Positions 3,339-62,574 of a stretch of 64,000 bases of DNA are shown piece by piece; the stretch's first letter is position 1; each line of letters begins with the position of its first letter. This DNA is from Alphaproteobacteria bacterium (GTDB lineage Bacteria > Pseudomonadota > Alphaproteobacteria > Rs-D84), in NCBI GenBank assembly GCA_017962125.1, contig JAGCVZ010000011.1, forward strand, positions 182,255 to 246,254. Reading direction: 5' to 3'. The translations under genes and the position numbers were made by a program. Below the pieces are notes generated by a model. It ran no database searches. It was not told the DNA's origin and was given only the letters and a program-made list of their open reading frames with translations.

Positions 3339-3423
3339 GCGGATATGGCGGAATTGGTAGACGCTCAGCACTAAGGATGCTGTGGAGAAATCCGTGGGGG
3401 TTCAAGTCCCCCTATCCGCACCA
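3339..3423 (+). tRNA. tRNA-Leu (type II, long variable arm); anticodon loop reads CUAAGGA, i.e. apparent anticodon AAG
   Basis: Cloverleaf folds by hand: acceptor GCGGATA/TATCCGC, D-arm GCGGAATTGGTAGACGC, anticodon stem CAGCA/TGCTG, T-arm GGGGG-TTCAAGT-CCCCC, encoded CCA. Length 85 nt. Confidence 0.8.
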
Positions 3424-3492
3424 AAATTGTATTTATTTGCACATTTTCCACTTGCCCAAAAAATCATTATTTTGCTAACCTTATCCCAAGGG

Positions 3493-24407: not shown

Positions 24408-24890
24408 TTACTTCGCGCCTGGTTCACCACCACCCTGTTTCATGCGTTCCATAACGGCCTCCATACCGCCCATGCGCTGAATCATCGCCATTTGCTGTTT
24501 CATTTTCAGATATTGTTTAATAATATGTTCCACGTCACGCACAGTAACACCCGCGGTTTCCGCAATGCGCGCCTTGGCATTGGCAAAGATTTTTTCCGGG
24601 TCTGCACGTTCCGCGGCGGTCATTGCTTCCAGTATTTTAATCTGAGCATCGACACTGCCGTCCTTGATTTTTTCCTTCATCGCCGCAACCGCGCCCGACA
24701 TACCTGGCACCATTTTCAGCAGCCCACTAAAATTACTCATCTTTTTAATCTGCTTTAATTGTGCAAGCATATCGTTCATATCAAACTGCCCCGCCATCAT
24801 GCGTTCCGCGGTTTCTTTCATGCCCTTTGGCATATGCGGTTCTTCCGCGCTAACATTTTCTTCTTTTTTCTTTTTACCAAATCCAAACAT
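24408..24890 (-). CDS. stand-alone SRP54/Ffh M-domain homolog (no NG/GTPase domain)
   Basis: 160 aa. FDMNDMLAQLKQIKKM..LKMVPGM.. and a Met-rich ..MKQQMAMIQRMGGMEAVMERM.. align to the Ffh M domain. Own GGAGAA RBS. Only 45 nt separate it from the uvrA stop, so no NG domain lies upstream. Confidence 0.6.
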   Translation of the reverse strand: MFGFGKKKKEENVSAEEPHMPKGMKETAERMMAGQFDMNDMLAQLKQIKKMSNFSGLLKMVPGMSGAVAAMKEKIKDGSVDAQIKILEAMTAAERADPEKIFANAKARIAETAGVTVRDVEHIIKQYLKMKQQMAMIQRMGGMEAVMERMKQGGGEPGAK

Positions 24891-33937: not shown

Positions 33938-36514
33938 TTACATTTGCATATCTTCACACTTTTCAACCGGGTCAGACTCAGTACAATTAACTTCGTCCTT
34001 TTGTCCTATACCCAAGAATCCATTTTTATGCACTGTATTGCAACTCTTGGTCACCGTCGAAGAACAAAGCCGACATATACGCGTTTCACGATTAAATGTT
34101 GACCACATTTGGCGCGTGCCACCTGGGATATTATATGCACTTTTATTACCGGCACCAGACAAGGCATATACACCTTCACTTGCGCCAAGCGATACAGCCG
34201 CCGACAAACCACGCATAACCTTATCGCCCACACCTTTGCCATAACCCGCTCTCTCGTTACTCACACTGCCCATACCACTTGTTGCGGACGTACCATGACC
34301 ACCCTGGGCAAGCAATCTATTATCCAACCCCACCCCTACTTCATAACTAATCGCGTATGGTGGCGCAAGATTTACCTGTTGTTCTTGTACTGCCTTTCCA
34401 CCAAAAATTCCACGTGAAAAAGGCAACATTTGGCAATTATATTGTGCAATGTCAACCTCTGCATCTCGGCTTGCCTTGGCAACATATTCATCGAATTTAG
34501 CTCTCTGATTCTCTGATGCTTTATTCAACGCCGCACTTGTGATTTTGCCCAAATACTGATTTAACAAATTCGGGAAACGCGCCACAGTGGATGTACCAGT
34601 ATCACCTGTTATCTGATCCAAACTACGCCCTGTTACACAGAACTGAATTTTTGGATCCAATTCAATCATATCTATCACACGATTTATTTTCTCTGCAACA
34701 CTGTTCAACTCCATTTCTATAGATGCCAAAATACCTTCTGAATCCTTAACGCCATCATTTACCTCTCTAGCACGCGCCATATAATCTTTGACACCAACTT
34801 TACCAAGGCCAAGCTTCTTACCCCCATCTTTCTTGGTGCTACCATCGCCGACGTTCAGCATATCAAACGAAATCATCCCAGTAATACGATATACATTACC
34901 ATCTTTCACACTGCGCAAACTGCCTGTGCCAATTGTTTCATCAGATGCCCAACGATTGCAATCGGTTGTAGAACCACAAATTTCCATCATTTTATCTTCG
35001 ACAACTTTCTGACAATTTTCTAATGCTTTGTTATCCATATTCAGATAAAGCCCCATTATCATGGAATCAATATCTTCCATCTTGAAGTTTTTATTATTCG
35101 CCTTGCAAACCACAAGTTTATCAAGTGGACAAAGATTATGAACAAATTCCCAATCCATACCTATACAATTCATAAAATCAGGTCCACAACGATCTTCGGA
35201 ATAAATACAATCTTTAACCTCCTGGGTGCACGCATCAACACGCATCGCCGCTAACTTGTCTTTTACATATCCCCAAATCAGTGGTTCCATACGTTCACAC
35301 GGATCAAGTTGAACCTTGCAAAACGATCTCGCCATATCAGGTCGTGATAAACACGAATCCATTGTCGCCTTGCCCTTGCCCACAATATCATCTTTGCAAG
35401 CCGTTTGAATACATTTCGTAATATCCGTTAAACAAGATTGCCGCACATTGGATTCTGCACGCAATTCTGCAAGTTTCAAACTTGGGGCAACTTCACGTAA
35501 AAACGCAGTCCAAACATTATTACGTACCGCCATACATTGGTCCAAAACTCGTTCACAAATTGTTCGTTTTGATTCAAGCCGTTCCAACACTGACGGTGTT
35601 ATATCGTAAGCAACGGTTGTACTTACCTTGGTCCCGGCGGTACTAGTTGCGGTCTTGTTTTGCATATTTTCATTTGCAATTATGGAAACACAATTTACCC
35701 AATCATCCCCGCAAGCATCAGCGCCAAGCATACAGTTTTTCAATTCAACCATGCATTCACCCTGATTGAATTTATTAGATGAATCAAAACTTTCTTTTAA
35801 CGCGGTTCTAACATCGGATTCTGCCGAATTCATTGCGGATTTCGCCGCAGCACGTTGTTCGGCAATACTATTTGCAAACCCACGACAATCCGATTCTATC
35901 TGACGTTGATAAATCTGTTTTAACAATTTTATATCTTTAACACACGATGAACCCAACTGATCTCGACATGTATCATCCGCAACTTTGAACAGTTCCGCCC
36001 CAGTCTTGTGCATAATATCATCATCGTCTTCTTCGTCATCTTCTTCGCTTAAATTTGTTTCAAACATCTTCATCAAACTTTCACGTTTCGATTTTCTCTT
36101 ATCCGCCGCGGTCATCTCTCCGACTTTGATAACATTTCCTTTTTCGTCATATTTGCGTTCACCCGTAAAGACAATATCTGCATTTGCACCAAGTTTTATT
36201 TTTTCTACCTCTACCGTTTTTACACGATCGGCCTCGGCTAACATTTCGTTTATTTCTTCAAGTTCGGCTTCATACTTTGTATTACTGTTACTACACAGAC
36301 AACTGCCCCCATTTATATTTTCCGACATACAAAATTGATCCATACAACCATAGTATTCATCATAGCATTCCTGAGAATAAATGCCCTTGGCCGCAACCCG
36401 CGCACGAACATTTGTCCCATTTTGAATTGCTGATTGTTTCTTTGCTGTTGCCGCAACCGCAACAACCGGTATAATCAATAACGCTGATAAAAAGGCAATT
36501 TTTTTCATTTTCAT
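33938..36514 (-). CDS. large secreted cysteine-rich protein, paralog P3
   Basis: 858 aa. Signal peptide, then CYDEYYGCMDQFCMSENINGGSCLCS, an acidic DDEEDDDD run, ICERVLDQCMAVRNNVW, and a C-terminal ..CTESDPVEKCEDMQM. Confidence 0.7.
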   Translation of the reverse strand: MKMKKIAFLSALLIIPVVAVAATAKKQSAIQNGTNVRARVAAKGIYSQECYDEYYGCMDQFCMSENINGGSCLCSNSNTKYEAELEEINEMLAEADRVKTVEVEKIKLGANADIVFTGERKYDEKGNVIKVGEMTAADKRKSKRESLMKMFETNLSEEDDEEDDDDIMHKTGAELFKVADDTCRDQLGSSCVKDIKLLKQIYQRQIESDCRGFANSIAEQRAAAKSAMNSAESDVRTALKESFDSSNKFNQGECMVELKNCMLGADACGDDWVNCVSIIANENMQNKTATSTAGTKVSTTVAYDITPSVLERLESKRTICERVLDQCMAVRNNVWTAFLREVAPSLKLAELRAESNVRQSCLTDITKCIQTACKDDIVGKGKATMDSCLSRPDMARSFCKVQLDPCERMEPLIWGYVKDKLAAMRVDACTQEVKDCIYSEDRCGPDFMNCIGMDWEFVHNLCPLDKLVVCKANNKNFKMEDIDSMIMGLYLNMDNKALENCQKVVEDKMMEICGSTTDCNRWASDETIGTGSLRSVKDGNVYRITGMISFDMLNVGDGSTKKDGGKKLGLGKVGVKDYMARAREVNDGVKDSEGILASIEMELNSVAEKINRVIDMIELDPKIQFCVTGRSLDQITGDTGTSTVARFPNLLNQYLGKITSAALNKASENQRAKFDEYVAKASRDAEVDIAQYNCQMLPFSRGIFGGKAVQEQQVNLAPPYAISYEVGVGLDNRLLAQGGHGTSATSGMGSVSNERAGYGKGVGDKVMRGLSAAVSLGASEGVYALSGAGNKSAYNIPGGTRQMWSTFNRETRICRLCSSTVTKSCNTVHKNGFLGIGQKDEVNCTESDPVEKCEDMQM

Positions 36515-36515
36515 C

Positions 36516-38666
36516 CTACATATTTACATCTTCACAAGATTCTATTTCCTGGCAGAAAGTTTCTTGACCGCCCGATGCGTAACCCATTGCACCAAAAGCA
36601 GCCGCACCAACAAGTGCCCCAATCGCAGTTCCCCAACCAGCACTTACCATGGTTCCCGCAGATGCTCCGGTTGATAAACCGCCAGCCGCAGCCTTTAACA
36701 TCGAGGTAGATTTCTTTTCGCCCCCAACTTCACAAACGCGTTGCATACGGCATACATGGCAATTACGTAATGAAGGTTCAAAAGAAACACTCTTTATATA
36801 AGAGTAAGACGTTTTTTCATCTTTTTCTTCTGCTTTTTTCTTTTCTGGCTTATAAAGTGTCAAACAATTTTCACGTGCTTCTTCCACATCTTGTTGCCGC
36901 GACAATTCCGCCACACGCGATTCCAAATCGGTAAGATAGCGATTTTCTGCGCCATTTTCTGCTATCATTTTTGCCGTCACAAAAATACTATCTTTCAAAC
37001 TTTTCCGACCTGCGGGTTGCTGCGCGCTTTTACATGCATCAACAGTAGCCTCCTTTTCAAACTGCTTAAAGAACTCCTCAACTGCAGTTTTACTTTCATC
37101 TTTCACTCTCTGACGCAAATCAGTCTTTCCAGATTCAGTACTAGGTAATTTAGTTAAAGTTTCTACAATATCACTCTTTGGTAAACAATTCATATCTGTT
37201 CCACAAATACGTCCCAGCATATCATCGTAATAGTTAATACAGCCTTGCATCATTTGATAATTCATCTGCAACAGCACAGAACTTACAATAACATCATAAA
37301 ATTTTTCACTTTTGCACGAAGGAAACATATCTTGGGGGCAAAGATCGACAATTTCTTGCGCGTTTTTCCCAAGGCACTGCGGTCCTGTGAAATTTTCACC
37401 ACATTTATTGCGCAAACATTTATCAACATCCGACTGACAAAAATCTGTCCGCAATGCCACCAACTTTTCGTTCCAACTCTGTTTAAGCCCCGGAATTTTA
37501 GCATCACATTCGTTTATAATTGGGCACACCCCCGCCGCAACATTTACATTCGTTAAACACCCTGTATCAGTCGACACAGCGCACCCATCTTCTAAACAAG
37601 CACGAATTTTGGCATTGCACGTCAGACGCATATTTCTATCACTATAAACCGCCGCATCGGCAAGAATCATTTTTGCTTCGTCCTTCCAATCATCCAAAAC
37701 GAAAGTTCTAACCGCCATACATTGATCTAAAATATTTTCACACGCATTTGCACGCCGTTCCAAAAGTTTTGCATCTAAACAATTTTCAAACTGAACACCA
37801 CAACCACCCTTGTCGGCAATACATGCGCGATACGCAAGCAAACATTCACCACGATTATACTTATTTGTAGTTCCTAACATATCCAATGTCGCCGACCGCA
37901 CAGCCGCATCCGCCGTCCGCTTGTTGGATTCCGCTGCGCGCTTTTGTTCTGCTAGATACCCAGTAAAAGTTTTACAATCTTTGAGTATTTCGCGCTGATA
38001 AAGTTTTTCTTCCATATCGGCACGTTTATTGTCACATGTTTTTAAAATAAAATCACAAGATTCAGCCGCTATATCATAAAGATTATCACCAATATCAGCA
38101 TCAGCATCCAAACTGGAATTCGTATCGCCATTTATCCATGCAACAAGGTCTATCCCCGTCTTGCGCGAAGATTTTTTTGCTTGGTCACTTTCACCAAATT
38201 TTATAAATTTCGCCTTGGCTCCAAGTTTTTCACGTTCGACCCCTTCTGTATATTGCTTTTCCGCCGCGAGTTCAATATCTTGAATTTCTTTAATTAATTT
38301 TTTTGATTGTTTTATATTGTTCGAACAAGAACAACGCCCCCCTTCGGATTCGTCCAACAAACAAAAATCATCCATACATTCACGATAGGCTTCGCGACAT
38401 TCTTCTGGACTAAGGTTTTCAATATCGTATTCTTCAACTTCCTCAGATGTAACACTAACCTCTTCTACTTCCGCGGGCTCCTCTACTTTTGCCACTGGCG
38501 CGCTTGAACTTTTACTATTCACTAAATTTATATTTTTTGTCTTAACCGCAGGACCAACAGACAACGACGGTCCACGAATGCCCGCCCGATTACCACCATC
38601 GCGCGTTGCCCCAAAACTAACACATGGCAAAAGCGCCAAAATAACAAAGAATATTTTGATTTTCAT
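36516..38666 (-). CDS. large secreted cysteine-rich protein, paralog P4 (tandem with P3)
   Basis: 716 aa. RBS AAGGAAAAA. CREAYRECMDDFCLLDESEGGRCSCS, ACENILDQCMAVRTFVL, a Gly-rich segment near the C-terminus, and ..CQEIESCEDVNM. Stop is 1 nt from the P3 ATG. Confidence 0.7.
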   Translation of the reverse strand: MKIKIFFVILALLPCVSFGATRDGGNRAGIRGPSLSVGPAVKTKNINLVNSKSSSAPVAKVEEPAEVEEVSVTSEEVEEYDIENLSPEECREAYRECMDDFCLLDESEGGRCSCSNNIKQSKKLIKEIQDIELAAEKQYTEGVEREKLGAKAKFIKFGESDQAKKSSRKTGIDLVAWINGDTNSSLDADADIGDNLYDIAAESCDFILKTCDNKRADMEEKLYQREILKDCKTFTGYLAEQKRAAESNKRTADAAVRSATLDMLGTTNKYNRGECLLAYRACIADKGGCGVQFENCLDAKLLERRANACENILDQCMAVRTFVLDDWKDEAKMILADAAVYSDRNMRLTCNAKIRACLEDGCAVSTDTGCLTNVNVAAGVCPIINECDAKIPGLKQSWNEKLVALRTDFCQSDVDKCLRNKCGENFTGPQCLGKNAQEIVDLCPQDMFPSCKSEKFYDVIVSSVLLQMNYQMMQGCINYYDDMLGRICGTDMNCLPKSDIVETLTKLPSTESGKTDLRQRVKDESKTAVEEFFKQFEKEATVDACKSAQQPAGRKSLKDSIFVTAKMIAENGAENRYLTDLESRVAELSRQQDVEEARENCLTLYKPEKKKAEEKDEKTSYSYIKSVSFEPSLRNCHVCRMQRVCEVGGEKKSTSMLKAAAGGLSTGASAGTMVSAGWGTAIGALVGAAAFGAMGYASGGQETFCQEIESCEDVNM

Positions 38667-43782: not shown

Positions 43783-44022
43783 CATGTGGGAACTTGGTTT
43801 CGGGCTGTAGCAGGCCTTACCTATTCGGTGCGAAGCATCGTAATCCATTGTGATTTCTCATGCTTTTGCACCGTCAAAGATAAAACCCCGATTTTGGTCG
43901 GGGTGCCCTTGGGATATACATAAAACCCATGGGGTCATCTAATAGGTATGATTTGCTAACACCCCGACCGCTTGGTTTCCAAAGCGGTGTTTTTATTTTA
44001 CAGAAAAAAAAGGGGGAGGAAC
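43783..44022 (+). promoter_or_regulatory. structured 5' leader of the 44023 gene with an intrinsic terminator (putative attenuator / riboswitch-like)
   Basis: Candidate promoter TTGAAT-N17-ATAAAT at ~43748-43776. GGTCGGGGTG (43896-43905) can pair with either an upstream CCCCGA hairpin or with CACCCCGACC (43960-43969). The latter overlaps the 5' arm of the terminator ACCGCTTGG..CCAAAGCGGT + T-run (43967-43996), which sits 26 nt before a strong-RBS ATG. Confidence 0.35.
43896..43969. repeat. conserved 74-nt stem-loop element, copy A
   Basis: GGTCGGGGTG ... GATATAC ... CACCCCGACC, matching 32389..32461. Confidence 0.5.
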
Positions 44023-45510
44023 ATGAGAAAGTTCATGATATTCGGGTTGTTCGCGGCATTTATCGGTTTCGCATTCGCCGATGATATTGCCGACAGGCAA
44101 ACAGTAACATCACTAACGTATGTAAATGATGAACTTTCTGAAAAACAAGATATATTCGGTGCGCAATCAGGAACAAAAGTTGCAACTTTTACCAATACCG
44201 CCGGGGAAATCACACCACGCGAAGTAAAATCAGATTTAGGCAATAACACAAACGACACCGCATTACCAACGGTTAGTGCAGTGAATACAGGTTTAGATGC
44301 CACCCAAGATACACTTGGTGCAAACAAACATGCGGATTATGTTGCGACATATACAAATGCGCCGGGTGAATTAGGTGAAAAAGGAATCTATCAAGACAGT
44401 GGCACATACGCCGAACAACAAAATGCACTTGTTGATGCGGGAACATTTAATGCGGCATTACAAAACGGATTGGATAATGAATTTGTTTGTGCCGGCAATG
44501 ACCCCGCAACCGGTAATTGTTGGTTATGGACGACACATAATGGACCGGTGAACTTGTTTAATGGGACCATGTATAAAGGCGGTTTAAATCTCAACGTCTC
44601 GTTTGTAGCTTCCAATTTTAAAAAAATTACTTCGCCATATACCCCAAACTCTGACTTTTATGGTCCAACCTTTTATGCAAGGGTTAAACCAAATACGAAA
44701 TACATGGTAACCATGACCACGAGTGCAAGATATAAATACGTTGCCTATTATTCAAACGAAAGTGATATTACCGATAGAAGTCTGGCATTAGGATATGCCA
44801 ACGTATCTAATAACATGTTCACCACACCATCAGGTGCAAATTACGCTGTTATTAGTTTTACTAATGCCAACACCAATGAAATAACATGGTCAAATGTCGA
44901 GCTCTATGAAATACCTGATTCCATTCTGGTTCCTTATGCATATACCCCGTTGGAATATATAGAAGCAACAAACGAAACCACAACTATTAATTTAGGGCTT
45001 TCCGGAGATATGAATTTTCTGGTTGTAGCACAATCAAGTAGAATAAAAGGCGCTTCACAAACCTTGCTTTCATCTACAAATGGCGGAAACACTAGTACAT
45101 GGTTTGGCGAGGCTACAACTACGCATACTTGGGGCGTGAGCGGTGCTAGCGGCGCTCATGCTATCTATTCAACTGAAAAGATATCTGCTAATATCACATT
45201 TGATTCTTTTGGGGCAAGGGGGACGGTAAATGGGCAAACCATTGTGAGAAATAAAGATACAACACAACAAAATTGGTGTTTGTTTAGTACTTGTATTGGC
45301 TATTATCCGTTTTTAGGCAAAGTTTGGACATTGCGAGCATATCAAAATGGTGTGCTTGTAGGAAATTTTATCCCCGCAAAACGTAATAGCGATAATGAAA
45401 TTGGTATGTACGATACAGTATCGGGCACGTTTAAAACTAACACTGGCACCGGAACACTTATCGCCGGGCCAGAGATAAGTAATAATGTTTACCTGCCCCA
45501 GAATCAGTGA
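44023..45510 (+). CDS. secreted Cys-poor T/N/S/G-rich beta-rich protein (adhesin- or fibre-like)
   Basis: ATG at 44023 with RBS AGGGGGAGGA and signal peptide MRKFMIFGLFAAFIGFAFA. About 495 aa with only 3 Cys. C-terminal ..GMYDTVSGTFKTNTGTGTLIAG... Confidence 0.6.
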   Translation: MRKFMIFGLFAAFIGFAFADDIADRQTVTSLTYVNDELSEKQDIFGAQSGTKVATFTNTAGEITPREVKSDLGNNTNDTALPTVSAVNTGLDATQDTLGANKHADYVATYTNAPGELGEKGIYQDSGTYAEQQNALVDAGTFNAALQNGLDNEFVCAGNDPATGNCWLWTTHNGPVNLFNGTMYKGGLNLNVSFVASNFKKITSPYTPNSDFYGPTFYARVKPNTKYMVTMTTSARYKYVAYYSNESDITDRSLALGYANVSNNMFTTPSGANYAVISFTNANTNEITWSNVELYEIPDSILVPYAYTPLEYIEATNETTTINLGLSGDMNFLVVAQSSRIKGASQTLLSSTNGGNTSTWFGEATTTHTWGVSGASGAHAIYSTEKISANITFDSFGARGTVNGQTIVRNKDTTQQNWCLFSTCIGYYPFLGKVWTLRAYQNGVLVGNFIPAKRNSDNEIGMYDTVSGTFKTNTGTGTLIAGPEISNNVYLPQNQ

Positions 45511-50652: not shown

Positions 50653-51591
50653 ATGGGATTTTTAATCAAAAAAATTTTTTTAATATATACTCTTTTCGTG
50701 ACCACCGCATACGCTGATGAAAATACATTCGTGGCGGCATTACGAAACACTTATTCTTCTTGCATTGGGATTGAATCTGAACTTGCTGAATTAAAACGTA
50801 TGGCCGGAATCAATACCGCTGTAACCGGGGTTGGAACCGGTCTTGGTATTGGCGCAACAGCGGTTGGCATTGTAAAATCCAAACATGACAAAGAAATCGA
50901 AGATATTACCGCTCAACTTGATGCAATGGGTGCAACCGAAATAAAAACAGAAGAACAATTATATGATATTTTGGCCGAATTAATGGATGAAACCCAAACC
51001 CAAAAGGGTCGTGAAATGGCGGATGCGCTGCGTGCTGAAAAGAAACGTAAAGAAGAACAATCTAAAAAACTTGGCAACTGGCGTACAGGACTACTTGCAG
51101 CAAACACCGCAACAAATATTGCAGGCACAATCATCGCGACCCAAAATCGTACAGATGGAAATTTGCAAAATCAAATTGATAAATGCAAATCGGCCGTATC
51201 AAATTTGAAACAGGCCCGCGCTCAGGCACAACTTGACGGAATTGATATAAACGAAGCCACACAAATCATAAATGCCTGTGACGGATTCAATACTGTTGAT
51301 ATCTCAAAAATCAACGTGCGCGCGGATGGCGCAAAAATCGCCGGAATTGTAGGTGCAACAACGGGGCTTACCGGCACGATAACCAGTGCCGTCGCCAACA
51401 CCGATGCCACGCGCCAAGACAATACGGATTCTGGGAAACAACGTGAAAGAAACCTTAATACTGCATCCAATGTTTTGGCGGGCGCATCAACTGTCGCATC
51501 GGCAACCGCCACCGTTTTCAATGCCACACAAATCAAGGCAATTAAAGACATCGCAGATGTCGCCACAAAATGTACGGGGGCGTTAAAATGA
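50653..51591 (+). CDS. secreted T/A/G-rich helical hypothetical protein (312 aa)
   Basis: Signal peptide MGFLIKKIFLIYTLFVTTAYA. Stop overlaps the next ATG (ATGA). Confidence 0.5.
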   Translation: MGFLIKKIFLIYTLFVTTAYADENTFVAALRNTYSSCIGIESELAELKRMAGINTAVTGVGTGLGIGATAVGIVKSKHDKEIEDITAQLDAMGATEIKTEEQLYDILAELMDETQTQKGREMADALRAEKKRKEEQSKKLGNWRTGLLAANTATNIAGTIIATQNRTDGNLQNQIDKCKSAVSNLKQARAQAQLDGIDINEATQIINACDGFNTVDISKINVRADGAKIAGIVGATTGLTGTITSAVANTDATRQDNTDSGKQRERNLNTASNVLAGASTVASATATVFNATQIKAIKDIADVATKCTGALK

Positions 51592-52664
51592 AAAAAGTAT
51601 TTCTTGCTATTTTTTCTTTATTTTTATGTTTATCGGCACATGCAGATGGCGACCCACAAATCATGATATTTGAATTAAACGGCAAAGCATACTACCTAAC
51701 TGATGAAAAATTACTTGAAGCGTTGATAAAATCCGAAACCTGTATCCAGGGTGCATCCGAAGGAGAAATAGCAAAACTCTATCTTTTACTGTACGATGCT
51801 TGCAAACAAAGTATCGCCGCATTAAGCGAAGAAGCCCGCGAACAAGGAATAAATCCACATACAAGATTCAATAATTTTATGCGAAATATCGGCACAAAAA
51901 TTGCCACTTCGAATTTTGCAAAACAAATTGGACTAAGCGAAACAGATAAAGAAACCATACTTCGAACAGGACTCAAAAATTGCCTTATAACCAAAGAATC
52001 TTTAACCAAAAGGTTAACACAAAATTCAAAAATGCACCCAACCGTAACTACAAAAATTACCGCAGATATCGATAAATGCATAAGCAACATCGGAATCTTA
52101 CCCCCAATAAAAAATGATATATGTCCATTGTATCCAAGTGTCCCAGATGAAAAATATATAGAAAATATTTTTAATCTTAACGCAACATACAGTACACAAA
52201 CTTTTCATTTTCCAACCGACACACCAATTAGCACGAATAAAATCATCATCTTCAATGGTAATGTCCTTGTGGCATGTGAAAATAATATCCCAAAATATCT
52301 TGTTCGACCCACGTATTCAGGACGCGAATCTTGCCAAAACGGACAATACCAAAGCATCCCATATTCTGGCGGAACGCCGAACGGGGTTTATGTAGTCCGC
52401 GCCAAAGACAAAGACACACTATCCAAAGAAAAACAACTTGCGTGGGGGCAATACCGCATTCCACTTATACCGGCCAATGAAACCAACACTTTTGGACGCA
52501 CGAATATGTACCTGCATGGAACAACAGACCCAAACAAACATCGTTCTGGTGGGTGCATAAGTTTGGGACTCGCCATAGATGAATTCGTTGAAACAAATTT
52601 TATTGATAGCACAATCCCGATAATCGTGGATGTAGATACCGTTTACCAAGATTGGAACAATTAA
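51588..52664 (+). CDS. secreted protein with C-terminal L,D-transpeptidase-like (YkuD) domain
   Basis: ATG at 51588 (MKKVFLAIFSLFLCLSAHA). C-terminal ..NMYLHGTTDPNKHRSGGCISLG.. resembles the HGT...(S/T)xGC(I/V)R catalytic motif. N-terminal ~250 aa unassigned. Confidence 0.55.
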   Translation: MKKVFLAIFSLFLCLSAHADGDPQIMIFELNGKAYYLTDEKLLEALIKSETCIQGASEGEIAKLYLLLYDACKQSIAALSEEAREQGINPHTRFNNFMRNIGTKIATSNFAKQIGLSETDKETILRTGLKNCLITKESLTKRLTQNSKMHPTVTTKITADIDKCISNIGILPPIKNDICPLYPSVPDEKYIENIFNLNATYSTQTFHFPTDTPISTNKIIIFNGNVLVACENNIPKYLVRPTYSGRESCQNGQYQSIPYSGGTPNGVYVVRAKDKDTLSKEKQLAWGQYRIPLIPANETNTFGRTNMYLHGTTDPNKHRSGGCISLGLAIDEFVETNFIDSTIPIIVDVDTVYQDWNN

Positions 52665-53500: not shown

Positions 53501-53575
53501 GCCCCACAATATCATGTCCCACAAAAAATGTGAAAAACATTTTTTGTGGTAAATTCCCTGTGGGGCGTAAGCATA
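53501..53575 (-). terminator. nested-hairpin terminator after rplI
   Basis: ACGCCCCACA..[CCCACAAAAAATGT-GAAAAA-ACATTTTTTGTGG]..TGTGGGGCGT, seen on both strands. Confidence 0.45.
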
Positions 53576-54977: not shown

Positions 54978-56090
54978 ATGAAAAAATTCTTATTATTATT
55001 GTCCATATTAGGGCTCGCCGCATGCGACAGACCGACTTCCAATGCCGAATTAACCTGCACAGTTGATAAACATTGGCAGCGATCAAATGTATTGTACTTA
55101 AACAACAATTACTATGATCCAGCGGCCAGGGAAGATACCGAAATAAAGGTCAAAATTGTGACTTATGATGATTATGCTAAAGTAACGGTTGATGGCGTAA
55201 TCACCACGTTTGAAAAGGTCATAGAACGCCGCGATAATGGCGAATTTGGATATGTTAGTCTAACATACAAGGGTAATTTTCCCGATTCAGAAAGAACGGC
55301 TTTGTTGGACATTTATGGCGATATAACCAACAAACAAATTCTACAATACCAGCTTAGTTTCATAGGGCAAAAGACAAAAAACGACTCTGGACGTGAATTC
55401 AGTATGAGTCATTCTTGCCGTCCTGTAAAAGAAGAATATAAAGGCAAATCATGGGGCGCTGCGGTTCCTTTCCACCACAATTATAAAATGCCGAACAAAA
55501 TTGAACGGTGCATTACTGATATTTGCAAAACGGTGTACTGTGGCGACGGAACATGCACAAGCCTTACCATTTTAAATGATGAAAACGGAAAAGAATTTCC
55601 ATTATCACCCCAAGACGCTCTTTCATTATCGAGAAATTGGGATTATTCTAATCTAAAACGGTACAGTAACGACGGAAAATTAGAAGATTATGAAAAAGAT
55701 GCGTGCGAAGTTCTGGATAAAATAAACAAATTTATTGCCGACCATGATTTATTTTTCGATGCATATAAAACGATTCAAGATGCAATGGATAACTGCGGGG
55801 AAAATTGTAACCGCATACTTACAAAAGGTGAAAAAGGAGATTTTCTAATTCAAATACCAGAAACCAAAGACTTGCGCAAAATTGCAACCAAGCAAAAAAA
55901 TGTTAAATTTTTATCGATATTTAATCCAAACTCACATGCCAAAGCCGATTACTGTCTTGTTAATGTAATCCCATACGACACTATGAAAAAGTTAGGAACG
56001 CCCGATAGCGATTGTCATTACCGCATTTACTGTGGTGCCCCAGAACATATGAACTATAACGAACCCTATGCAGTGGAAGTGTGTTATTAA
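54978..56090 (+). CDS. lipoprotein, Cys-rich hypothetical (370 aa)
   Basis: Lipobox LGLAAC after the signal peptide. 20 Cys. No family recognised. Confidence 0.55.
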   Translation: MKKFLLLLSILGLAACDRPTSNAELTCTVDKHWQRSNVLYLNNNYYDPAAREDTEIKVKIVTYDDYAKVTVDGVITTFEKVIERRDNGEFGYVSLTYKGNFPDSERTALLDIYGDITNKQILQYQLSFIGQKTKNDSGREFSMSHSCRPVKEEYKGKSWGAAVPFHHNYKMPNKIERCITDICKTVYCGDGTCTSLTILNDENGKEFPLSPQDALSLSRNWDYSNLKRYSNDGKLEDYEKDACEVLDKINKFIADHDLFFDAYKTIQDAMDNCGENCNRILTKGEKGDFLIQIPETKDLRKIATKQKNVKFLSIFNPNSHAKADYCLVNVIPYDTMKKLGTPDSDCHYRIYCGAPEHMNYNEPYAVEVCY

Positions 56091-56115: not shown

Positions 56116-56141
56116 TCCCGAACAATGTTCGGGATTTTTTT
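56116..56141 (+). terminator. intrinsic terminator (TCCCGAAC-AAT-GTTCGGGA + T7)
   Basis: Follows the lipoprotein gene. Confidence 0.6.
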
Positions 56142-56219
56142 AAAGACATATTTCATGAACAAACCCGTTGACACAACATTTAAAAATTTTCTAAGATGAA
56201 ACTGTAACGGGGGAAAAAT

Positions 56220-56993
56220 ATGAACAGTTTTCACAAAAATCTTAACCGAATGGCGATTTTTACGGCTTTTGTACTATGCTTGTGCATCATTTTTTACCGG
56301 ACATTTTTTGCTATTGCCATTGCAAACATATACCTTAACGGTGTAATCATCGGCACAACGCTTTTCGGAATAATCGTCTGTTTTATCAAGATGTTTGCAT
56401 TACTGCCGGAACACAGGTGGTTAAATGAATATACTCATGGGGTCAAAAAACCTAAATTACCTCCCCGCCTGCTTCGCTCTGTTGCGTTATTATTACATTA
56501 CCAACGCAATAAATTGACTGCTGGGGGGTTGCGCAGTGTATTGGATATAATTCAGATAAAAATGGATGATGATGGTGAATCGGTACGTTACACCGTAAAC
56601 ACCCTTGTTTTTTTAGGTTTACTTGGTACATTTTGGGGGTTATTGGTAACCATCGGTGGCTTTGCAGAACTAATAAGTAATTTAAATTTCAATAATGAAA
56701 CTGTATTAGAAACAATGCAAGCCGGACTTTCACAACCGCTTGGTGGTATGGCGACCGCGTTTACCAGTTCGCTACTCGGCCTTGGGGGCAGTTTGGTTGT
56801 CGGTTTCTTAGGTTTACAATTACAGCTAGCACACAATGCGATACTTCACAATCTTGAAGAATTCTTGTCGGCACGGACGAATATATCTCATACAAATTTG
56901 GTAGAATCCGCCCTGCCCCAGATTGAATCAGTACTTGACCGCATTCATAGTCACGTTGAAAACTTAGATGAAAAATTGGAACTAATCGAATAA
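56220..56993 (+). CDS. MotA/TolQ/ExbB proton-channel family protein
   Basis: 257 aa. TM helices and the conserved C-terminal TM pair ..LGLLGTFWGLL.. and ..LGGMATAFTSSLLGLGGSLVVGFL... ATG at 56220 with a GGGGGAAAAA RBS. Confidence 0.7.
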   Translation: MNSFHKNLNRMAIFTAFVLCLCIIFYRTFFAIAIANIYLNGVIIGTTLFGIIVCFIKMFALLPEHRWLNEYTHGVKKPKLPPRLLRSVALLLHYQRNKLTAGGLRSVLDIIQIKMDDDGESVRYTVNTLVFLGLLGTFWGLLVTIGGFAELISNLNFNNETVLETMQAGLSQPLGGMATAFTSSLLGLGGSLVVGFLGLQLQLAHNAILHNLEEFLSARTNISHTNLVESALPQIESVLDRIHSHVENLDEKLELIE

Positions 56994-57018
56994 AAAACAG
57001 TGCGAGGGAGAAAACAAA

Positions 57019-58152
57019 ATGTTCAGATTAAATTTTCGAAGCAAACCAAATACATGGCCGGCATTCATAGACCTGTTTTCAAATTTGGTTATAATATTGA
57101 TATTTTTGCTAATCGTCTTTGTGTTTTTATGGACGACGACCAGCGTATTTAATAAACGCAACGGGGTTAAGACTATTGCGGAATTAAAACAAATGAACAT
57201 AGAACAAACTGCACAAATCAATCAAATGACCGCAGATAATGAAGAAGCCATGCGGTTATTAATTCAAGCACGTGCAGAATTGCTATCTAACCAAGACGAA
57301 TTGGACAGCAAGAATTTATCTATGATTGACATAATTACCGCATATGAAAACGAAGTATCCAAGGTAAAATCCAGTGATGATGCCGCCCGACGCGAAGTCG
57401 CAGAACTGCGCGAACAACTAGCACAAACAACTGCTATCAAAGAACAACTTGTCGAATTAGAACAACAACGCAGTATATTACAGGAAAAAATGCAAAAACA
57501 GGTAAATGTTCAACAAGAATTGATAGATGCCCAAGAATCAGAAATGGCGAAATATACGTCGGAATTAAAACGTCTAAATGCCGCGCTTACCAACGCAGAC
57601 AAAGAACTTTTAAGCCAACAGGTTAAATACATCGAAATGTCAAATAAACTAAACAAGGCGCTTGCCGACAAAGTTGCCGAATTGCAAGACATGCGCGAAT
57701 ACCAGTCTGAATTTTATCGTGCGGTAAAAATTGCACTTGGCGATACAGAATCAATAGAGGTTGATGGAGACCGCTTTATCGTGCAAAGCGACATACTATT
57801 TCCAACCGGCTCATACAAGTTATCAACCGAAGGTAAAAAACAATTACGCCTTGTATCAAATGTCATCAAAGAAATGGAAATGAAAATTCCATCAGACATT
57901 GAATGGATAATTCGTGTTGATGGTCATACTGACAATAAGCCTGTCGTTCCTGGCAATCGCGCATATTCAAATAACATGGAATTGTCATTACTGCGTGCGA
58001 CGGCGGTAGTGAACGAACTAGTGCGGGACGGCGTACAGAGCAAACGTCTTGTTCCTACGGGATTTGGCGATATGTACCCATTTGTTCCGAACACAACCAA
58101 GGCGAACATGCAGAAAAACCGTCGCATTGAATTGAAACTCACGAATAAATAG
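57019..58152 (+). CDS. MotB/OmpA-C-like peptidoglycan-binding protein with long coiled-coil linker
   Basis: 377 aa. N-terminal TM (LVIILIFLLIVFVFLW), an ~200-aa Q/E/L-rich coiled coil, and a C-terminal OmpA/MotB domain (RVDGHTDNKP..NMELSLLRATAVVNELV..NRRIEL). RBS GAGGGAG. Confidence 0.7.
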   Translation: MFRLNFRSKPNTWPAFIDLFSNLVIILIFLLIVFVFLWTTTSVFNKRNGVKTIAELKQMNIEQTAQINQMTADNEEAMRLLIQARAELLSNQDELDSKNLSMIDIITAYENEVSKVKSSDDAARREVAELREQLAQTTAIKEQLVELEQQRSILQEKMQKQVNVQQELIDAQESEMAKYTSELKRLNAALTNADKELLSQQVKYIEMSNKLNKALADKVAELQDMREYQSEFYRAVKIALGDTESIEVDGDRFIVQSDILFPTGSYKLSTEGKKQLRLVSNVIKEMEMKIPSDIEWIIRVDGHTDNKPVVPGNRAYSNNMELSLLRATAVVNELVRDGVQSKRLVPTGFGDMYPFVPNTTKANMQKNRRIELKLTNK

Positions 58153-58345
58153 TGGAAAGTGTTAGTGTAAGTGGTTAGTAATTTCTGGAATTATTTCATA
58201 ATTGTGAAATTATTCTGGAAAACAAAGTTCCCCTCTGGAAATCACCCACAAAAAATGTTGCACTTTTTTTGCGGGAACCGGTATAGGGGTGCCGCGGCAC
58301 CGCTTTGTGGTGACGGGCGGGGTGTCGCCCACTAACACTTTCCAC
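58150..58345. repeat. IR-bounded GC-rich element (MITE/REP-like), stop-motif family
   Basis: Perfect 16-bp terminal inverted repeats GTGGAAAGTGTTAGTG (58152-58167) and CACTAACACTTTCCAC (58330-58345). Left end begins with the motB-like stop TAG (TAGTGGAAAGTGTTAGTGTAAGTGGTTAGTAA). Core has GGTGCCGC-GGCACC and the AAAGTTCCCCTC block. Confidence 0.6.
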
Positions 58346-58407
58346 TCCAACACTTTTCCCTTTCCTTTTTTCATAACTTATGATAAAATGCATCAGCATA
58401 GAGAGAG

Positions 58408-60393
58408 ATGAAATTCTATTCGAGCCTTTTATTCGGTGTAATTTTTGCAATGACTGCTTTGCCGGCGGTCTCTAATGTTGCGACAACGGCTGGATCGAAC
58501 CTTACTGCATACAATGGCACCGGTGCCACGAATAATAACAAATGGAATAACCTTATGAACGGTCGCGCCGGTATGTCGCAAACCACGGCAGAGGCGAATT
58601 TTGGAAACTGTAATGCGATTGTGTTGCGTTGCGCGTCGCCAAAGTGCGCATCGGGTGGATGTACCGACATGAATGTTGCGGCGGCAATAGTTGCAGGGTG
58701 TGTAAATTCAAATCAAAATTGCAAGCAATATGGCGATGACTTAATCCAGTACATCACCGCCCAGGTTGTGGCGCAATCAACTGCCAAGGTGCAGCAACAA
58801 CAAAACGCCGTTGAAATAGCCAAGGCACAGGCCGATGCCCAGGCGTCCGCAGCAGCGCAGAGTAACGCCCAAATGCAACAAATGCAGCAGCAAATGGCGC
58901 AGATGCAACAGCAAATGGCGGAATCTATGAACGCGATGCAGGAGCAAATGGCGGCGGCGGCGGAATCACAAAACGCACAAATTCAAAGCGCATTAGAAGC
59001 CCAGACCACATCGGCAAATGCCTATGCAAACACCGGCGCAGCCCCGATCGAAACCGGCGCGGTGATTTCGGGACTCGAAGGCCTTGGGGTCGCGGAACAA
59101 CTGGCCGCGAAAAACGGCATCAGTGCGGAAATTTTGGTTCGCGAACAAATTGGCGGTCAAATTGAAACCGCGATTGAAGATGCAACACTTAAAATGAAAG
59201 AATTAAAACAGCAACTTGATGCAATCATTGAATACGCAGGTTGTGACCCATCGGTAACAAAATGTACCGGTCCAAAACGTGTTAAAAAATTCAAAGACAT
59301 GGCAAACGAATTTTTCGACCCGTACGAAGGTGTTCTTGAAAGTATGTATGATGCACTTATTACCGCAGTTACGGTCGGTATTGATGTGAGTGATGTTGTT
59401 ATGTTGCTAAGTGATTCATGTAATTTGTGGGGAAAATTCCTTTGTGACCCATGCTCTTTACCCCAAGCAAAAAAAGATGGACAAGCCACAGATCCATCTA
59501 CCAATGAAATTTGCTTCTGTAATAATTATAACGATACAACACACGAATACACAAATTGTTACTATCGCGTCAAGACAAGTTCATCAAATGATGGACGTGT
59601 TACCAGCAAACAAAGTCATTGCCGTATGGTCGGCCAAGTAGGCAACAAAGAAGATGTTTGGCACGAATGGATTGATCCAAATTCGGGCATAGGCGGCGCA
59701 ACCCAGGTCGCGTGCGCTTCTGATATTATCGGGGATATATCCATATTTAGTACCGTTATAAAACGCAAAAACACAACGATAGATATCGAAACATTACGCG
59801 ACCTTATAAACCAAGATTCTTGTACCTGCGGTGTTAACAAAGACGGCTCTTTCGATGTTTTAGAAGATTGTTGCGCCAGACGTTGCAATGTTGACCCACA
59901 TAACGATAAAGATAGAATGAGCCAATTACAAACAGCCGTCGACACAAAAAAGTGGCCAACAAAAAATGCGTGCTTTGCAGATGAAAAAAGTTTCAGAAAA
60001 TTAGACAACGGCGGTTCATCGAATAGTGAAATCGCCACAACAACCAACATAACCGTCACTGGGTTGAATACAAACATTAATTCTTGCGATGCATATCTAA
60101 CAGAAACAGCCTGCACATTTGTATCCGATAATTGCATATGGTTAAGCGCATCAAAAAAATGTATCAGTAAAACCATAGACACCAATTTAACATTTAACCA
60201 AAATTTGGTTAACAATGAAAACAACATCTTAAAAGGCACAAACACAACTATTGAAGCAAAGAACGGTATAATACAGGCACAATCTGGTTTTTCCGGTGTT
60301 GTTAACGGGGCATGCAGTTCTTACAATCTGTTTGAATGTCCGGAAAATGTATGCAAAAAAAATTACATAACAGGTAAATGTGTGAATAAATAA
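58408..60393 (+). CDS. large secreted cysteine-rich protein, divergent paralog P5
   Basis: 661 aa. Signal peptide, then CNAIVLRCASPKCASGGC (Cx6Cx4Cx4C), a Q/M/A-rich repeat (..QMQQMQQQMAQMQQQMAESMNAMQEQMAAAAE..), and a Cys-rich C-terminal half. RBS GAGAGAGA. Confidence 0.65.
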   Translation: MKFYSSLLFGVIFAMTALPAVSNVATTAGSNLTAYNGTGATNNNKWNNLMNGRAGMSQTTAEANFGNCNAIVLRCASPKCASGGCTDMNVAAAIVAGCVNSNQNCKQYGDDLIQYITAQVVAQSTAKVQQQQNAVEIAKAQADAQASAAAQSNAQMQQMQQQMAQMQQQMAESMNAMQEQMAAAAESQNAQIQSALEAQTTSANAYANTGAAPIETGAVISGLEGLGVAEQLAAKNGISAEILVREQIGGQIETAIEDATLKMKELKQQLDAIIEYAGCDPSVTKCTGPKRVKKFKDMANEFFDPYEGVLESMYDALITAVTVGIDVSDVVMLLSDSCNLWGKFLCDPCSLPQAKKDGQATDPSTNEICFCNNYNDTTHEYTNCYYRVKTSSSNDGRVTSKQSHCRMVGQVGNKEDVWHEWIDPNSGIGGATQVACASDIIGDISIFSTVIKRKNTTIDIETLRDLINQDSCTCGVNKDGSFDVLEDCCARRCNVDPHNDKDRMSQLQTAVDTKKWPTKNACFADEKSFRKLDNGGSSNSEIATTTNITVTGLNTNINSCDAYLTETACTFVSDNCIWLSASKKCISKTIDTNLTFNQNLVNNENNILKGTNTTIEAKNGIIQAQSGFSGVVNGACSSYNLFECPENVCKKNYITGKCVNK

Positions 60394-60397
60394 AAAA

Positions 60398-61150
60398 ATG
60401 AAAACGAAAATGAAAATCTTTAATATTGTTGTTGGTGCAATTCTTTGTGCACTGCCGATAACATCGCATGCAACCGAAGAATGCACATTCTTTTCACCCG
60501 CCTTGGCACTGTGCAGTGTGCACGCTTATAACGTTGGTGACGCAGAAAACCCGACAGATACGGGGCGCGCAACCGATATCGAAAATGTTATCGCACTTAA
60601 ATCTACATTTATGGTGCAACAGTTAAAACAACAATACGATAAATTAAATACGGTTATCAAACGCCTTAAAACCCAACTGAACAAGGCGGTTTTAACCAGT
60701 AAAATAGAAGTCCTTACGGGCAACACATCGTCATCATCAAATTCATCATCGGGCGGGTCGAATTCGAATAATACTGTATCGATATCCGGCGCATCCGATT
60801 GTTCAACTTATTCCGGAACGGCAAACATTGCACAGTGTTTGCAACCGAACATTCAATTGATTATAAACACCGCAAATTCCGGTAAAATCACAGAAGCCCG
60901 AAATCAACTTATCAAAGATATGAACACAGCGACTACTTGGAAGTTATGTGATAAAGAACAGACTCAGACGGCATGTTGTAGCGCCATAAAAGGCAAAGAC
61001 ATAACTCAAGCCATCAAGGGTATGAATGCCGCAAATTTAATTTCTTGTGCAAATGAATTTCGCGCGGCAATTGTAATAAAGATGGAAGAAAATAATAACA
61101 AGAATCGTAATAACTATTCTGGTTGGGGTGCCAACAATAACGGTGGCTAA
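60398..61150 (+). CDS. secreted Cys-containing S/N-rich protein (250 aa)
   Basis: ATG is 4 nt after the P5 stop. Signal peptide ..ILCALPITSHA. 10 Cys. Ser-rich spacer SSSSNSSSGGSNSNN. Confidence 0.55.
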   Translation: MKTKMKIFNIVVGAILCALPITSHATEECTFFSPALALCSVHAYNVGDAENPTDTGRATDIENVIALKSTFMVQQLKQQYDKLNTVIKRLKTQLNKAVLTSKIEVLTGNTSSSSNSSSGGSNSNNTVSISGASDCSTYSGTANIAQCLQPNIQLIINTANSGKITEARNQLIKDMNTATTWKLCDKEQTQTACCSAIKGKDITQAIKGMNAANLISCANEFRAAIVIKMEENNNKNRNNYSGWGANNNGG

Positions 61151-61159
61151 CCCCCAAAT

Positions 61160-61404
61160 TTCCAAATAATTCCAGAGACTAAAGTTCCCCTCCTGCGGAG
61201 GGGTGCTGGGTAGCACCCGGCGGGGTGGTCTTTTACAAACAATTTGAAAATTCAAACGACCACCTCCCCCTTCGGGTACTCCTCCACAGGAGGAGAACTT
61301 TGCACTCTGCCCCCGCGGAGATACCGCTTTTCAACGGTATGACGATAAAAAACGGGCACAACCGCGCCCGTTTTCCATCAATCACTAACCACTAACACTC
61401 CCCA
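61160..61404. repeat. composite GC-rich structured element related to the 58150 element, ending in a stop-motif terminus at the pgk stop
   Basis: AATTCCAGAG, the AAAGTTCCCCTCC block, hairpins CCCCTCC-TGC-GGAGGGG, GGTGCT-GGGTA-GCACC, CTCCTCC-ACA-GGAGGAG and ATACCG-CTTTTCAA-CGGTAT. On the minus strand the end reads TAG-TGGGGAGTGTTAGTGGTTAGTGAT, where TAG is the pgk stop. Confidence 0.55.
61351..61375. terminator. bidirectional intrinsic terminator (AACGGGC..GCCCGTT flanked by A6/T4)
   Basis: Within the composite element. T-run follows on the minus strand after pgk. Confidence 0.45.
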
Positions 61405-62574
61405 CTAACACTCACGCAACACTTCTATCCCCGGCAATTCGCGACCTTCGATAAATTCCAAAAATGCGCCACCTCCGGTTGACACATACGTTATATCGCC
61501 CATCACGCCGCACGCATCCAAGGCCGCCACCGTATCGCCACCACCAACAATACTTTCAAGTTTTCCACTACGTGTATTATTGGCAATCGCACGCGCAATC
61601 GCGAACGATCCAAACGACCACGTCGGTTGCCACTCCGCCATACCAACCGTTCCGTTCCAAATTACAGTTGCGGCCTGGCCTATTTCAACCGCATCACGCT
61701 GCGCGGTTTTCGGTCCACCGTCAATAATCACATCGTCCGGCGCAATGTCCGCAATATCTTTATCAGTGCGTGGCGCATTAGGTTCAAAGACCGGTCCAAC
61801 ACCCTTGTCCAGTGGCACCAAGAAACGGCAGTTATTTTCGCGCGCGTATTCCATAATCGCAAGTGCGTTTTCTTTCTGGTCCGGTTCATACAGCGAATTT
61901 CCAACCGCATCACCCATTGCATAATTAAAAGTCGTTCCCAATGCACCGCCAACAATAATCGTGTCCGACAGTTTCGCCAATGCACGCAGCACGCCGATTT
62001 TCGTCGAAACCTTGGAACCTGCGACTATAGAAAGCACAGGGTGCTTTGGATTTTCCATAACGCGTGTCAGGTTATCTATCTCGCTCTCTAACAACAACCC
62101 AGCATAGGACGGCAAAAATTTTGTTACACCAACAGTACTTGCATGCGCGCGGTGCGAAACTGCAAACGCGTCATTCACAAAGACATCAAATCCCGCTGCT
62201 AACTTTTCGGCGAACGCCGGGGCGTTTTCTTCTTCACCTGCATAAAAACGCAAATTTTCAAGCAACACCACATCGCCATCTTGCATTTCCGCCATAAAAT
62301 CGCGGTTCAGACAATCATCGACAAACGGCAACTTCATATATTCCGCCACACCGCGCAACGAATATTTCATGTCACGCGTTCCCTTTGGCCGCCCCAGGTG
62401 AGAACAAATCGCAACCCGCGCGCCCGCATTGCGCAATGCCTCTATCGTAGGCATACTCCGTTCAATACGAAATCCTTCGGTAATTTTACCATCAACAATT
62501 TGCACATTAAAATCATCGCGCAACAACACATACTTGCCCCGCAAATCCAGCCCCTGAATTGTCCTAAGTTTCAT
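61405..62574 (-). CDS. pgk: phosphoglycerate kinase
   Basis: 389 aa. MKLRTIQGLDLRGKYVLLRDDFNV.. N-terminus. Hinge and C-terminal nucleotide-binding motifs present. Confidence 0.9.
   Translation of the reverse strand: MKLRTIQGLDLRGKYVLLRDDFNVQIVDGKITEGFRIERSMPTIEALRNAGARVAICSHLGRPKGTRDMKYSLRGVAEYMKLPFVDDCLNRDFMAEMQDGDVVLLENLRFYAGEEENAPAFAEKLAAGFDVFVNDAFAVSHRAHASTVGVTKFLPSYAGLLLESEIDNLTRVMENPKHPVLSIVAGSKVSTKIGVLRALAKLSDTIIVGGALGTTFNYAMGDAVGNSLYEPDQKENALAIMEYARENNCRFLVPLDKGVGPVFEPNAPRTDKDIADIAPDDVIIDGGPKTAQRDAVEIGQAATVIWNGTVGMAEWQPTWSFGSFAIARAIANNTRSGKLESIVGGGDTVAALDACGVMGDITYVSTGGGAFLEFIEGRELPGIEVLREC

Follow-up and report, generated by a model that had tools for sequence, protein, structure and literature searches.

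The locus and its two genes

The stretch of DNA analysed here, hereafter called the window, is 64,000 nucleotides of an Alphaproteobacteria bacterium (assembly GCA_017962125.1, contig JAGCVZ010000011.1, positions 182,255 to 246,254 of the forward strand), and it carries two adjacent genes, A and B, whose products resemble the two subunits of an ion-driven envelope motor. The genes constitute a two-gene operon (Table 1). An earlier note, made from the letters of the window, had described two plus-strand open reading frames (ORFs) behind plausible ribosome-binding sites (RBS), and this is borne out; that they lie close together is also right, although the spacer measures 25 nt (56994-57018) and not 26. 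That A and B are genuine genes follows from their database homologues, more than 6000 for A and more than 5600 for B at E≤1e-3. The best matches of both are metagenome-assembled genomes (MAGs) of uncultured Alphaproteobacteria, A has an entry that is 100% identical, and each gene is single-copy within the window.

Upstream of A lies a hairpin, missed by the consensus scan, that has the look of a bidirectional terminator; it would end the Cys-rich gene before it and delimit the operon on its 5′ side. The promoter candidate between this hairpin and A is weak evidence, since promoter-like matches are at least as frequent in shuffled sequence as here.

Table 1. Features of the A-B locus, numbered from the first nucleotide of the window.
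Feature	Position	Strand	Description
Cys-rich ORF	54978-56090		370 aa, 14 Cys
Hairpin tcccgaac/gttcggga	56116-56141	.	3-nt loop, between A-run and T-run; visual call only
Sigma-70-like promoter candidate TTGACA-18-TAAGAT	56168-56197	+	10/12 matches; ends 23 nt 5′ of the A start codon
RBS-like site of A	56209-56214	+	GGGGGA, purine-rich
Gene A	56220-56993	+	ORF, 257 aa, MotA/ExbB/TolQ-superfamily subunit, ZorA-like branch
A, motif of transmembrane (TM) helix 3, FLGLLGTFWGL	56610-56642	+	residues 131-141; Thr137 codon 56628-56630
A, motif of TM helix 4, PLGGMATAFTSSLLGLGGSL	56736-56795	+	residues 173-192; Ser184 codon 56769-56771
RBS-like site of B	57004-57010	+	GAGGGAG, purine-rich
Gene B	57019-58152	+	ORF, 377 aa, MotB-like: TM helix with Asp, long coiled coil, OmpA domain
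B, single TM helix WPAFIDLFSNLVIILIFLL...	57055-57144	+	residues 13-42, from hydropathy; Asp18 codon 57070-57072
B, coiled-coil stalk	57151-57735	+	residues 45-239, from AlphaFold2 (AF2) secondary structure and heptad-like pattern
B, OmpA-type peptidoglycan-binding domain	57766-58149	+	residues 250-377, Pfam OmpA 3e-16
Miniature inverted-repeat transposable element (MITE)-like element	58151-58346		starts inside the B stop codon; between B and the 661-aa ORF
Cys-rich ORF	58408-60393	+	661 aa, 30 Cys
Cys-rich ORF	60398-61150		9 Cys

Protein A, a ZorA-like channel subunit

Protein A belongs to the MotA/ExbB/TolQ superfamily, that is, to the class that provides the pentameric subunits of 5:2 motors. 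Four TM helices are predicted, with both termini in the cytoplasm, and A shows the helical-hairpin TM fold common to ExbB, TolQ, MotA, PomA and ZorA. A fold search with the AF2 model (pLDDT 74.7) retrieves A subunits of 5:2 motors exclusively. By sequence, ZorA (8vvn) is the best or the sole motor match among PDB entries. At the level of profiles, ZorA/MotA-core models are matched and the PADLOC ZorA1 profile recognises window A at 1e-11 and all 62 relatives (best 5e-17); Pfam MotA_ExbB (PF01618) gives weak matches only, to 42 of the 62 relatives and at best 1e-6. No NCBIfam model exists for the A family.

The residues expected to line the pore are conserved throughout. Thr137 and Ser184 are invariant in 62 diverse members and at least 99% conserved in 146 sequences. 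Thr137 is the counterpart of the pore threonine, ZorA T147 or the Thr ring of ExbB and TolQ, and Ser184 probably corresponds to ZorA S184, as judged from profile alignments and not from structure; the roles of the ZorA residues are taken from PMC11946911. TM helix 4 is Ser-rich, reading TSS in window A and SSS in the family consensus.

After its last TM helix window A has a short, acidic, helical tail of ~52 aa, and the earlier note was right that a long cytoplasmic tail is missing from this 257-aa protein. Most relatives are 350-400 aa long and carry a median of 102 extra C-terminal helical residues, which align with the proximal tail of ZorA, and window A, which keeps the first tail helix alone (residues 227-256), is therefore a lineage-specific truncation. 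Assembly of ZorAB requires the base of the ZorA tail (PMC11946911), and the remnant helix of A may by analogy be the minimal element needed for assembly.

Protein B, a stalked peptidoglycan-binding partner

By its profile alignment, protein B can be placed as a divergent member of the NCBIfam family PRK09039, 'peptidoglycan-binding protein' (NF006542-NF006546), residues 11-376 covering positions 15-349 of the 350 in NF006543 (PRK09039.1-2) at E 3.2e-67. A basic N-terminus is followed by a single TM helix with the MotB-type motif WPAFIDLFSNL. The protonatable aspartate of this motif, Asp18, is invariant in the close-family alignment, and W[PG][AGS]F[IV]D is found in 122 of 125 members of the B family, including the Sinorhizobium meliloti and Rhodospirillales-type orthologues, the former with Asp20 at the equivalent position; a conserved aspartate here was one of the things that the earlier note had proposed to look for.

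In the AF2 model the TM helix passes straight into the coiled coil. The tripartite architecture that had been read from the letters, a TM helix, some 200 aa of coiled coil and an OmpA domain, is confirmed, the ~195 residues of the stalk being all-helical with no proline, one glycine and a predicted break at 165-171. Across the B family the linker between TM helix and OmpA domain comprises 161-259 residues (median 197) and is free of proline in 121 of 122 members, and the long stalk is thus a family trait. Insertions and deletions in the stalk cluster at ~122-128 and ~157-173, the latter cluster coinciding with the predicted helix break. Many are of 7, 14, 21, 11, 18 or 25 residues, sizes that keep the coiled-coil periodicity, and the commonest single one is a 10-residue deletion at 162. 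We read the stalk as two coiled-coil segments (~45-164 and ~172-239) joined by a variable hinge at ~157-173.

The OmpA domain has, as invariant alignment columns, GHTD (D305) and N319-x2-L-x3-RA (R326), which we take to be the diaminopimelate-binding motif of OmpA-like domains. The solved folds nearest to the periplasmic domain are those of the MotB-like DVU_2228, MotS, PomB and Helicobacter pylori MotB (target-normalised TM-score 0.72-0.76).

An ancient alphaproteobacterial gene pair

The pair was followed through 34 related loci, defined as relatives at 53-81% identity to A, whose genomes, of rumen and gut origin, bear the name Candidatus Enterousia, and through four distant loci. The earlier note had suggested gene-neighbourhood conservation as a check, and A neighbours B in every one of the 34 related loci as well as in the four distant ones. 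In 28 of the 34 the pair adjoins, and is divergent to, rpsF-rpsR-rplI. A replicon of S. meliloti (3.7 Mb) encodes a 368-aa homologue 40% identical to A, annotated 'MotA/TolQ/ExbB proton channel family protein', and a 342-aa 'peptidoglycan-binding protein' whose gene starts 3 nt after it. The same pair, with B of 397-439 aa, is present in three distant long-contig loci, one of them named Rhodospirillaceae. The order efp-suhB ... ABC transporter-rpmE-DUF1465-DUF1192 is common to the S. meliloti and the Rhodospirillaceae-named loci and is partially kept in the other two, which argues for vertical inheritance. The four distant B orthologues pass the PRK09039 cutoffs (692, 490, 462 and 467 bits), and B orthologues have the TM aspartate, the proline-free coiled coil and the OmpA domain and are always encoded directly 3′ of an A-family gene.

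At E≤1e-3 an exhaustive search for the A family gave 1661 cluster representatives, and at E≤1e-30 it gave 149. Wherever a source name states a taxon, this is an alphaproteobacterial one or the less specific 'Proteobacteria bacterium'. The pair was verified in Sinorhizobium and Shinella, and further in MAGs that bear the names Rhodospirillales, Rhodospirillaceae and Hyphomicrobiales. It is accordingly an ancient family across the Alphaproteobacteria, set within conserved housekeeping synteny. The architecture is not a peculiarity of this locus: the family is class-wide and already catalogued by NCBI, A as 'MotA/TolQ/ExbB proton channel family protein' and B as PRK09039.

Three of the distant loci have a third gene 5′ of A (L036 5957-6946, L038 5707-6939, L040 5926-6936), the product of which combines a signal peptide with a long, TonB/TolA-like linker rich in Pro, Ala and Lys and a C-terminal OmpA-like domain that is degenerate. 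This product may be an extra periplasmic partner of the A-B system; neither the window nor S. meliloti has its gene.

From the gene order, with thiE2 as SMc03996, rgsF as SMc03995 and suhB as SMc03994, A and B of S. meliloti would be SMc03993 and SMc03992. A ChvI-bound DNA fragment, F10, maps inside SMc03993 (PMC3687685), a faint hint that the pair could be regulated by envelope stress.

Two side observations belong here. CP090106.1 (L035) is labelled 'plasmid pSymB' in PLSDB, yet it measures 3.72 Mb and carries the chromosomal core genes rpmE, rpmJ and purEK, so the label looks wrong. The S. meliloti pair lies two genes 3′ of rgsF, which encodes an essential Sel1/TPR growth-zone protein. The idea that the Rgs growth-zone proteins might include a MotA/OmpA pair was dropped, for Krol et al. 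2020 (PMC7327166) list none and RgsF merely lies two genes 5′.

A proposed stator-type complex and its alternatives

We lean towards the view that A and B form a peptidoglycan-anchored, proton-conducting, stator-type A5B2 complex, of a distinct alphaproteobacterial family with a housekeeping role in the envelope, and consider this probable though far from assured. Two B subunits would insert their Asp18-bearing TM helices into the centre of an A pentamer, and protons, rather than sodium ions, would move from the periplasm via the ring that Thr137 and Ser184 form in A, then via Asp18 of B, and so into the cytoplasm. The dimeric OmpA domains would hold the wall at the end of a rigid, two-segment coiled-coil stalk, and ion flow would make the A ring rotate around B, in the manner of MotAB and ZorAB. 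The role may be a vertically inherited housekeeping one, for example coupling of inner membrane to wall dependent on the proton-motive force (PMF), and is presumably not motility, phage defence or handling of the Cys-rich neighbour protein. A PMF-driven envelope machine with its function unassigned, as the earlier note had it, is the reading that best fits the pair. Homology, fold, the conserved catalytic residues and the conservation of operon and synteny are established; stoichiometry, coupling ion, rotation, site of output and cellular role are deductions.

Several observations weigh against this view. The 5:2 stoichiometry is itself deduced, as the structure models of A and B are monomers, and these are moderate for A and low for B (pLDDT 64.3, below 55 in the coiled coil). 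The Pfam scan of window A gave no match at E≤0.1, MotA_ExbB included, and B, with 227.8 bits, falls below the NF006543 cutoff of 305. The distance from inner membrane to peptidoglycan is ~9 nm in Escherichia coli (PMC11946911), and an extended stalk of ~195 residues would measure ~29 nm, about three times as much, so that it must fold at the hinge, tilt or lie tilted, or cross the wall. Window A is nearly tail-less, which makes a ZorA-like cytoplasmic output doubtful in this lineage. Finally, SMc03993 and SMc03992 are absent from the Rgs/Tol pull-down tables (PMC7327166) and are not listed in the table in which diCenzo et al. 2018 compare essential genes, and no published characterization was found for PRK09039, for a ZorAB-like or MotAB-like coiled-coil pair or for SMc03992/3. 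The S. meliloti transposon-sequencing (Tn-seq) supplements on nodule-specific cysteine-rich (NCR) peptides have no entry for the pair either, and the pair is perhaps non-essential. PRK09039 itself appears in the literature as a spurious coiled-coil match in a phage paper and as an entry in a BLUF-domain table.

A bolder form of the stator-type reading is conceivable, and we hold it tentatively, as possible rather than probable. A-B would be the housekeeping counterpart of ZorAB, and possibly its evolutionary source: a PMF-driven rotary complex with a B-dimer axle of 25-35 nm reaching to or through the wall. It would then amount to an undescribed energy-dependent link that joins the inner membrane with the wall or outer membrane, TolR, TolA and Pal in one polypeptide, perhaps under envelope-stress (ChvI) control.

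With the tail of A mostly lost and the stalk kept in the window lineage, periplasmic output becomes a serious rival, even if we consider it unlikely. B would here be a force transducer, in which a PMF-driven movement in A5 extends, retracts or twists the stalk, wall binding or outer-membrane contact becomes energy-dependent and the cytoplasmic face of A is not the output. B does join an Asp helix of the TolR/MotB type, a long helical rod resembling domain II of TolA and an OmpA domain similar to that of Pal, its stalk is conserved where the tail of A is dispensable in this lineage and far exceeds the way from membrane to wall, and many relatives have the secreted, Pro-rich OmpA-like partner 5′ of A. 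B lacks, however, a periplasmic domain of the TolR/ExbD type and a partner of the TolA/TonB type, the sequence of A is nearer to ZorA than to TolQ, and with its OmpA domain fixed to peptidoglycan B is more likely to be static, as MotB and ZorB are.

B might also be nothing but a static tether, with A, its channel no longer ion-conducting, as the partner that stabilises it. This would agree with the absence of a rotor or effector gene linked to A-B and with the truncated tail in the window lineage. Asp18, Thr137, Ser184 and both whole TM motifs are, however, invariant at ~35% identity, which is hard to explain without ion conduction and leaves the tether improbable.

The best profile matches of the pair are ZorA and ZorB, and the tail of the A family aligns with the proximal ZorA tail, and one may thus ask whether A-B is a minimal or degenerate anti-phage sensor of the Zorya type. 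We regard this as very improbable. The scores of A lie far under the NCBIfam ZorA cutoffs (25.6 bits against 500, and 23 against 100), and its tail in the window counts 52 aa against residues ~223-729 in ZorA. ZorC/ZorD, ZorE and ZorF/ZorG are not adjacent to the pair, the neighbours being rpsF-rpsR-rplI, the Cys-rich ORFs and pgk in the window and suhB, an ABC transporter and rpmE elsewhere. The pair is moreover syntenic and single-copy among ribosomal and glycolytic genes across orders, and such class-wide synteny argues against a role in defence.

According to the earlier note, the motor might energise the secretion or positioning of the adjacent 661-aa Cys-rich protein, a proposal that now appears hardly credible. 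The gene is on the same strand directly 3′ of B in the window and in nine related loci, all close relatives. It is missing from the other 25 of the 34 and from all distant loci, where A-B persists, and the MITE-like element, with a GC-rich, terminator-like palindrome at 58285-58304, stands between it and B. Only 2 of the 34 related loci have the 370-aa Cys-rich ORF inserted between rpsF and A, and it too is absent from the S. meliloti and Rhodospirillales-type loci, where the pair is intact. The Cys-rich ORFs belong to no Pfam family, and tblastn at E≤1e-3 found no paralogues of them in the window, so that the designation of the adjacent one as a paralogue holds up less well. They behave as variable cargo, and their confinement to the closest relatives leaves a functional link to the motor unsupported.

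A divergent flagellar stator paralogous to MotAB is close to negligible as an explanation, since the 'MotA' and 'chemotaxis protein MotB' labels of some database entries and the likeness of the B periplasmic domain to those of MotB and PomB are set against the lack of any Pfam MotB_plug or MotA_ExbB match, a 64-kb window with no flagellar gene, a separate motA (SMc03022) in the flagellar cluster of S. meliloti and a long stalk that is unmatched in the stator structures and surveys consulted.

Other features of the window

The window is a housekeeping stretch, with pth, polA, an M23 peptidase gene, ftsH, tilS, rlmE, uvrA, rodZ, dus, mscS, clpXP, grpE, tpiA, a SurA-like gene, tkt, recO, a DsbA-like gene, rpsF-rpsR-rplI and pgk. 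The earlier note had seen no flagellar or Tol genes next to the pair, and Pfam scans extend this to the whole 64 kb, in which no flagellar, Tol, Ton or defence genes were found.

A MITE had been reported directly after B. The element does have perfect 17-nt terminal inverted repeats, AGTGGAAAGTGTTAGTG, at 58151-58167 and 58330-58346, 162 nt apart, but it is not multi-copy in the window, where blastn gives one 49-nt match at 78% identity (53517-53565). A third arm, a copy of the repeat with two mismatches, lies at 61390-61405 at the 3′ end of pgk.

Some further ORFs merit mention. The ORF at 51570-52664 encodes an L,D-transpeptidase-like domain of the YkuD/Tlde1 type (Tlde1 1.2e-7, YkuD 1.1e-4) behind a signal-peptide-like N-terminus; with a tblastn match in 2 of the 34 related loci (L002 and L006), it is another variable envelope or toxin-like gene. 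Directly 3′ of uvrA, the minus-strand ORF at 24408-24890 (160 aa) encodes the M-domain of SRP54 alone (SRP_SPB, 1.2e-22), and as the space upstream is too small to encode the N and G domains of Ffh, it is a stand-alone M-domain protein or a remnant. The ORF at 1703-3238 has a weak match (1.4e-7) to Pom, a family of Protochlamydia outer-membrane proteins, and in a region that is otherwise well annotated five large ORFs of 512-973 aa have no Pfam match at E≤1e-5 (3382-6303, 19296-21590, 33938-36514, 36516-38666 and 43972-45510).

Relation to known 5:2 motors

Flagella, gliding, type IX secretion, Ton and Tol transport and Zorya defence all draw their power from ion-driven 5:2 motors, and each newly understood family has revealed another way of sending energy across the envelope. 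The A-B family, distinctive in its architecture, has thousands of members across the Alphaproteobacteria, a class that includes Sinorhizobium, Brucella and Agrobacterium, under database names that are uninformative or misleading ('MotA', 'chemotaxis protein MotB', 'peptidoglycan-binding protein'). It may clarify the origin of the Zorya sensor module and is directly testable in the genetically tractable S. meliloti. The window pair itself is of modest interest, as one more divergent and tail-truncated member with no evident link to the Cys-rich proteins. Surveys of 5:2 motors (PMC12505986, PMC12204202, PMC9389320) do not describe the family, and the alphaproteobacterial signature proteins of Gupta (PMC2241609) show no link to the pair.

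The nearest sequence relative of A, in the TM core and the proximal tail, belongs to Zorya ZorAB (type I/III), a 5:2 anti-phage motor. The Thr/Ser pore pair is kept in both ZorA and A, and ZorB has, like B, a TM aspartate and an OmpA-type peptidoglycan-binding domain and no MotB plug. ZorB lacks the periplasmic coiled coil, which is 160-260 aa long in the B family, and ZorA has three TM helices against the four predicted in A. The tail of ZorA, approximately residues 223-729 (PMC11946911), far exceeds the remnant in window A and the median of ~100 further residues in its relatives. The arrangement had been called the reverse of Zorya, with the long coiled coil on the MotB-like and not on the MotA-like protein; this describes the window lineage, but most family members have both a coiled coil in B and a helical tail in A. 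Zorya is also cargo of defence islands, whereas A-B is a vertically inherited pair of core genes.

With MotAB, PomAB and MotPS the pair shares the predicted four-TM, N-in topology of A, the TM aspartate and MotB-like OmpA domain of B and the order of A before B. It differs from such stators in lacking the plug motif (the Pfam scan of B matched OmpA and not MotB_plug), a torque-generating cytoplasmic domain recognisable by Pfam and a flagellar context, and in that its stalk is very long where stators have a short linker. From TolQR-TolA-Pal and ExbBD-TonB it differs in that B has neither fold nor family match to TolR or ExbD; no gene for a TolA/TonB transducer or for TolB, Pal or CpoB was found in the window or in the related loci examined, and the similarity of A to TolQ is marginal (E ~0.3). 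Neither of the identities that the earlier note had set against its own proposal, orthology to TolQ with a TolA-Pal fusion and a known flagellar stator, was found, and its assignment of a MotA/ExbB-superfamily channel with a MotB/OmpA partner outside the standard MotAB, TolQR and ExbBD sets stands.

A likeness in design can further be seen in GldLM and PorLM of the type IX secretion system and gliding, which are 5:2 motors with a dimeric B-type subunit and a long periplasmic extension (review PMC9389320). In GldM and PorM this extension consists of globular domains reaching an outer-membrane ring, not of a coiled coil and an OmpA domain, and neither protein gave a sequence or fold match among the results for A and B. 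A 2025 survey of MotAB describes non-flagellar ('GIT') B subunits as lacking peptidoglycan-binding domains homologous to OmpA (PMC12505986), a generalisation that does not extend to the non-flagellar B family, which, like ZorB, clearly has such a domain. The A-B pair is thus not a flagellar, Tol, Ton or Zorya system, and relative to the characterized systems its family is a variant of the 5:2 motor theme.

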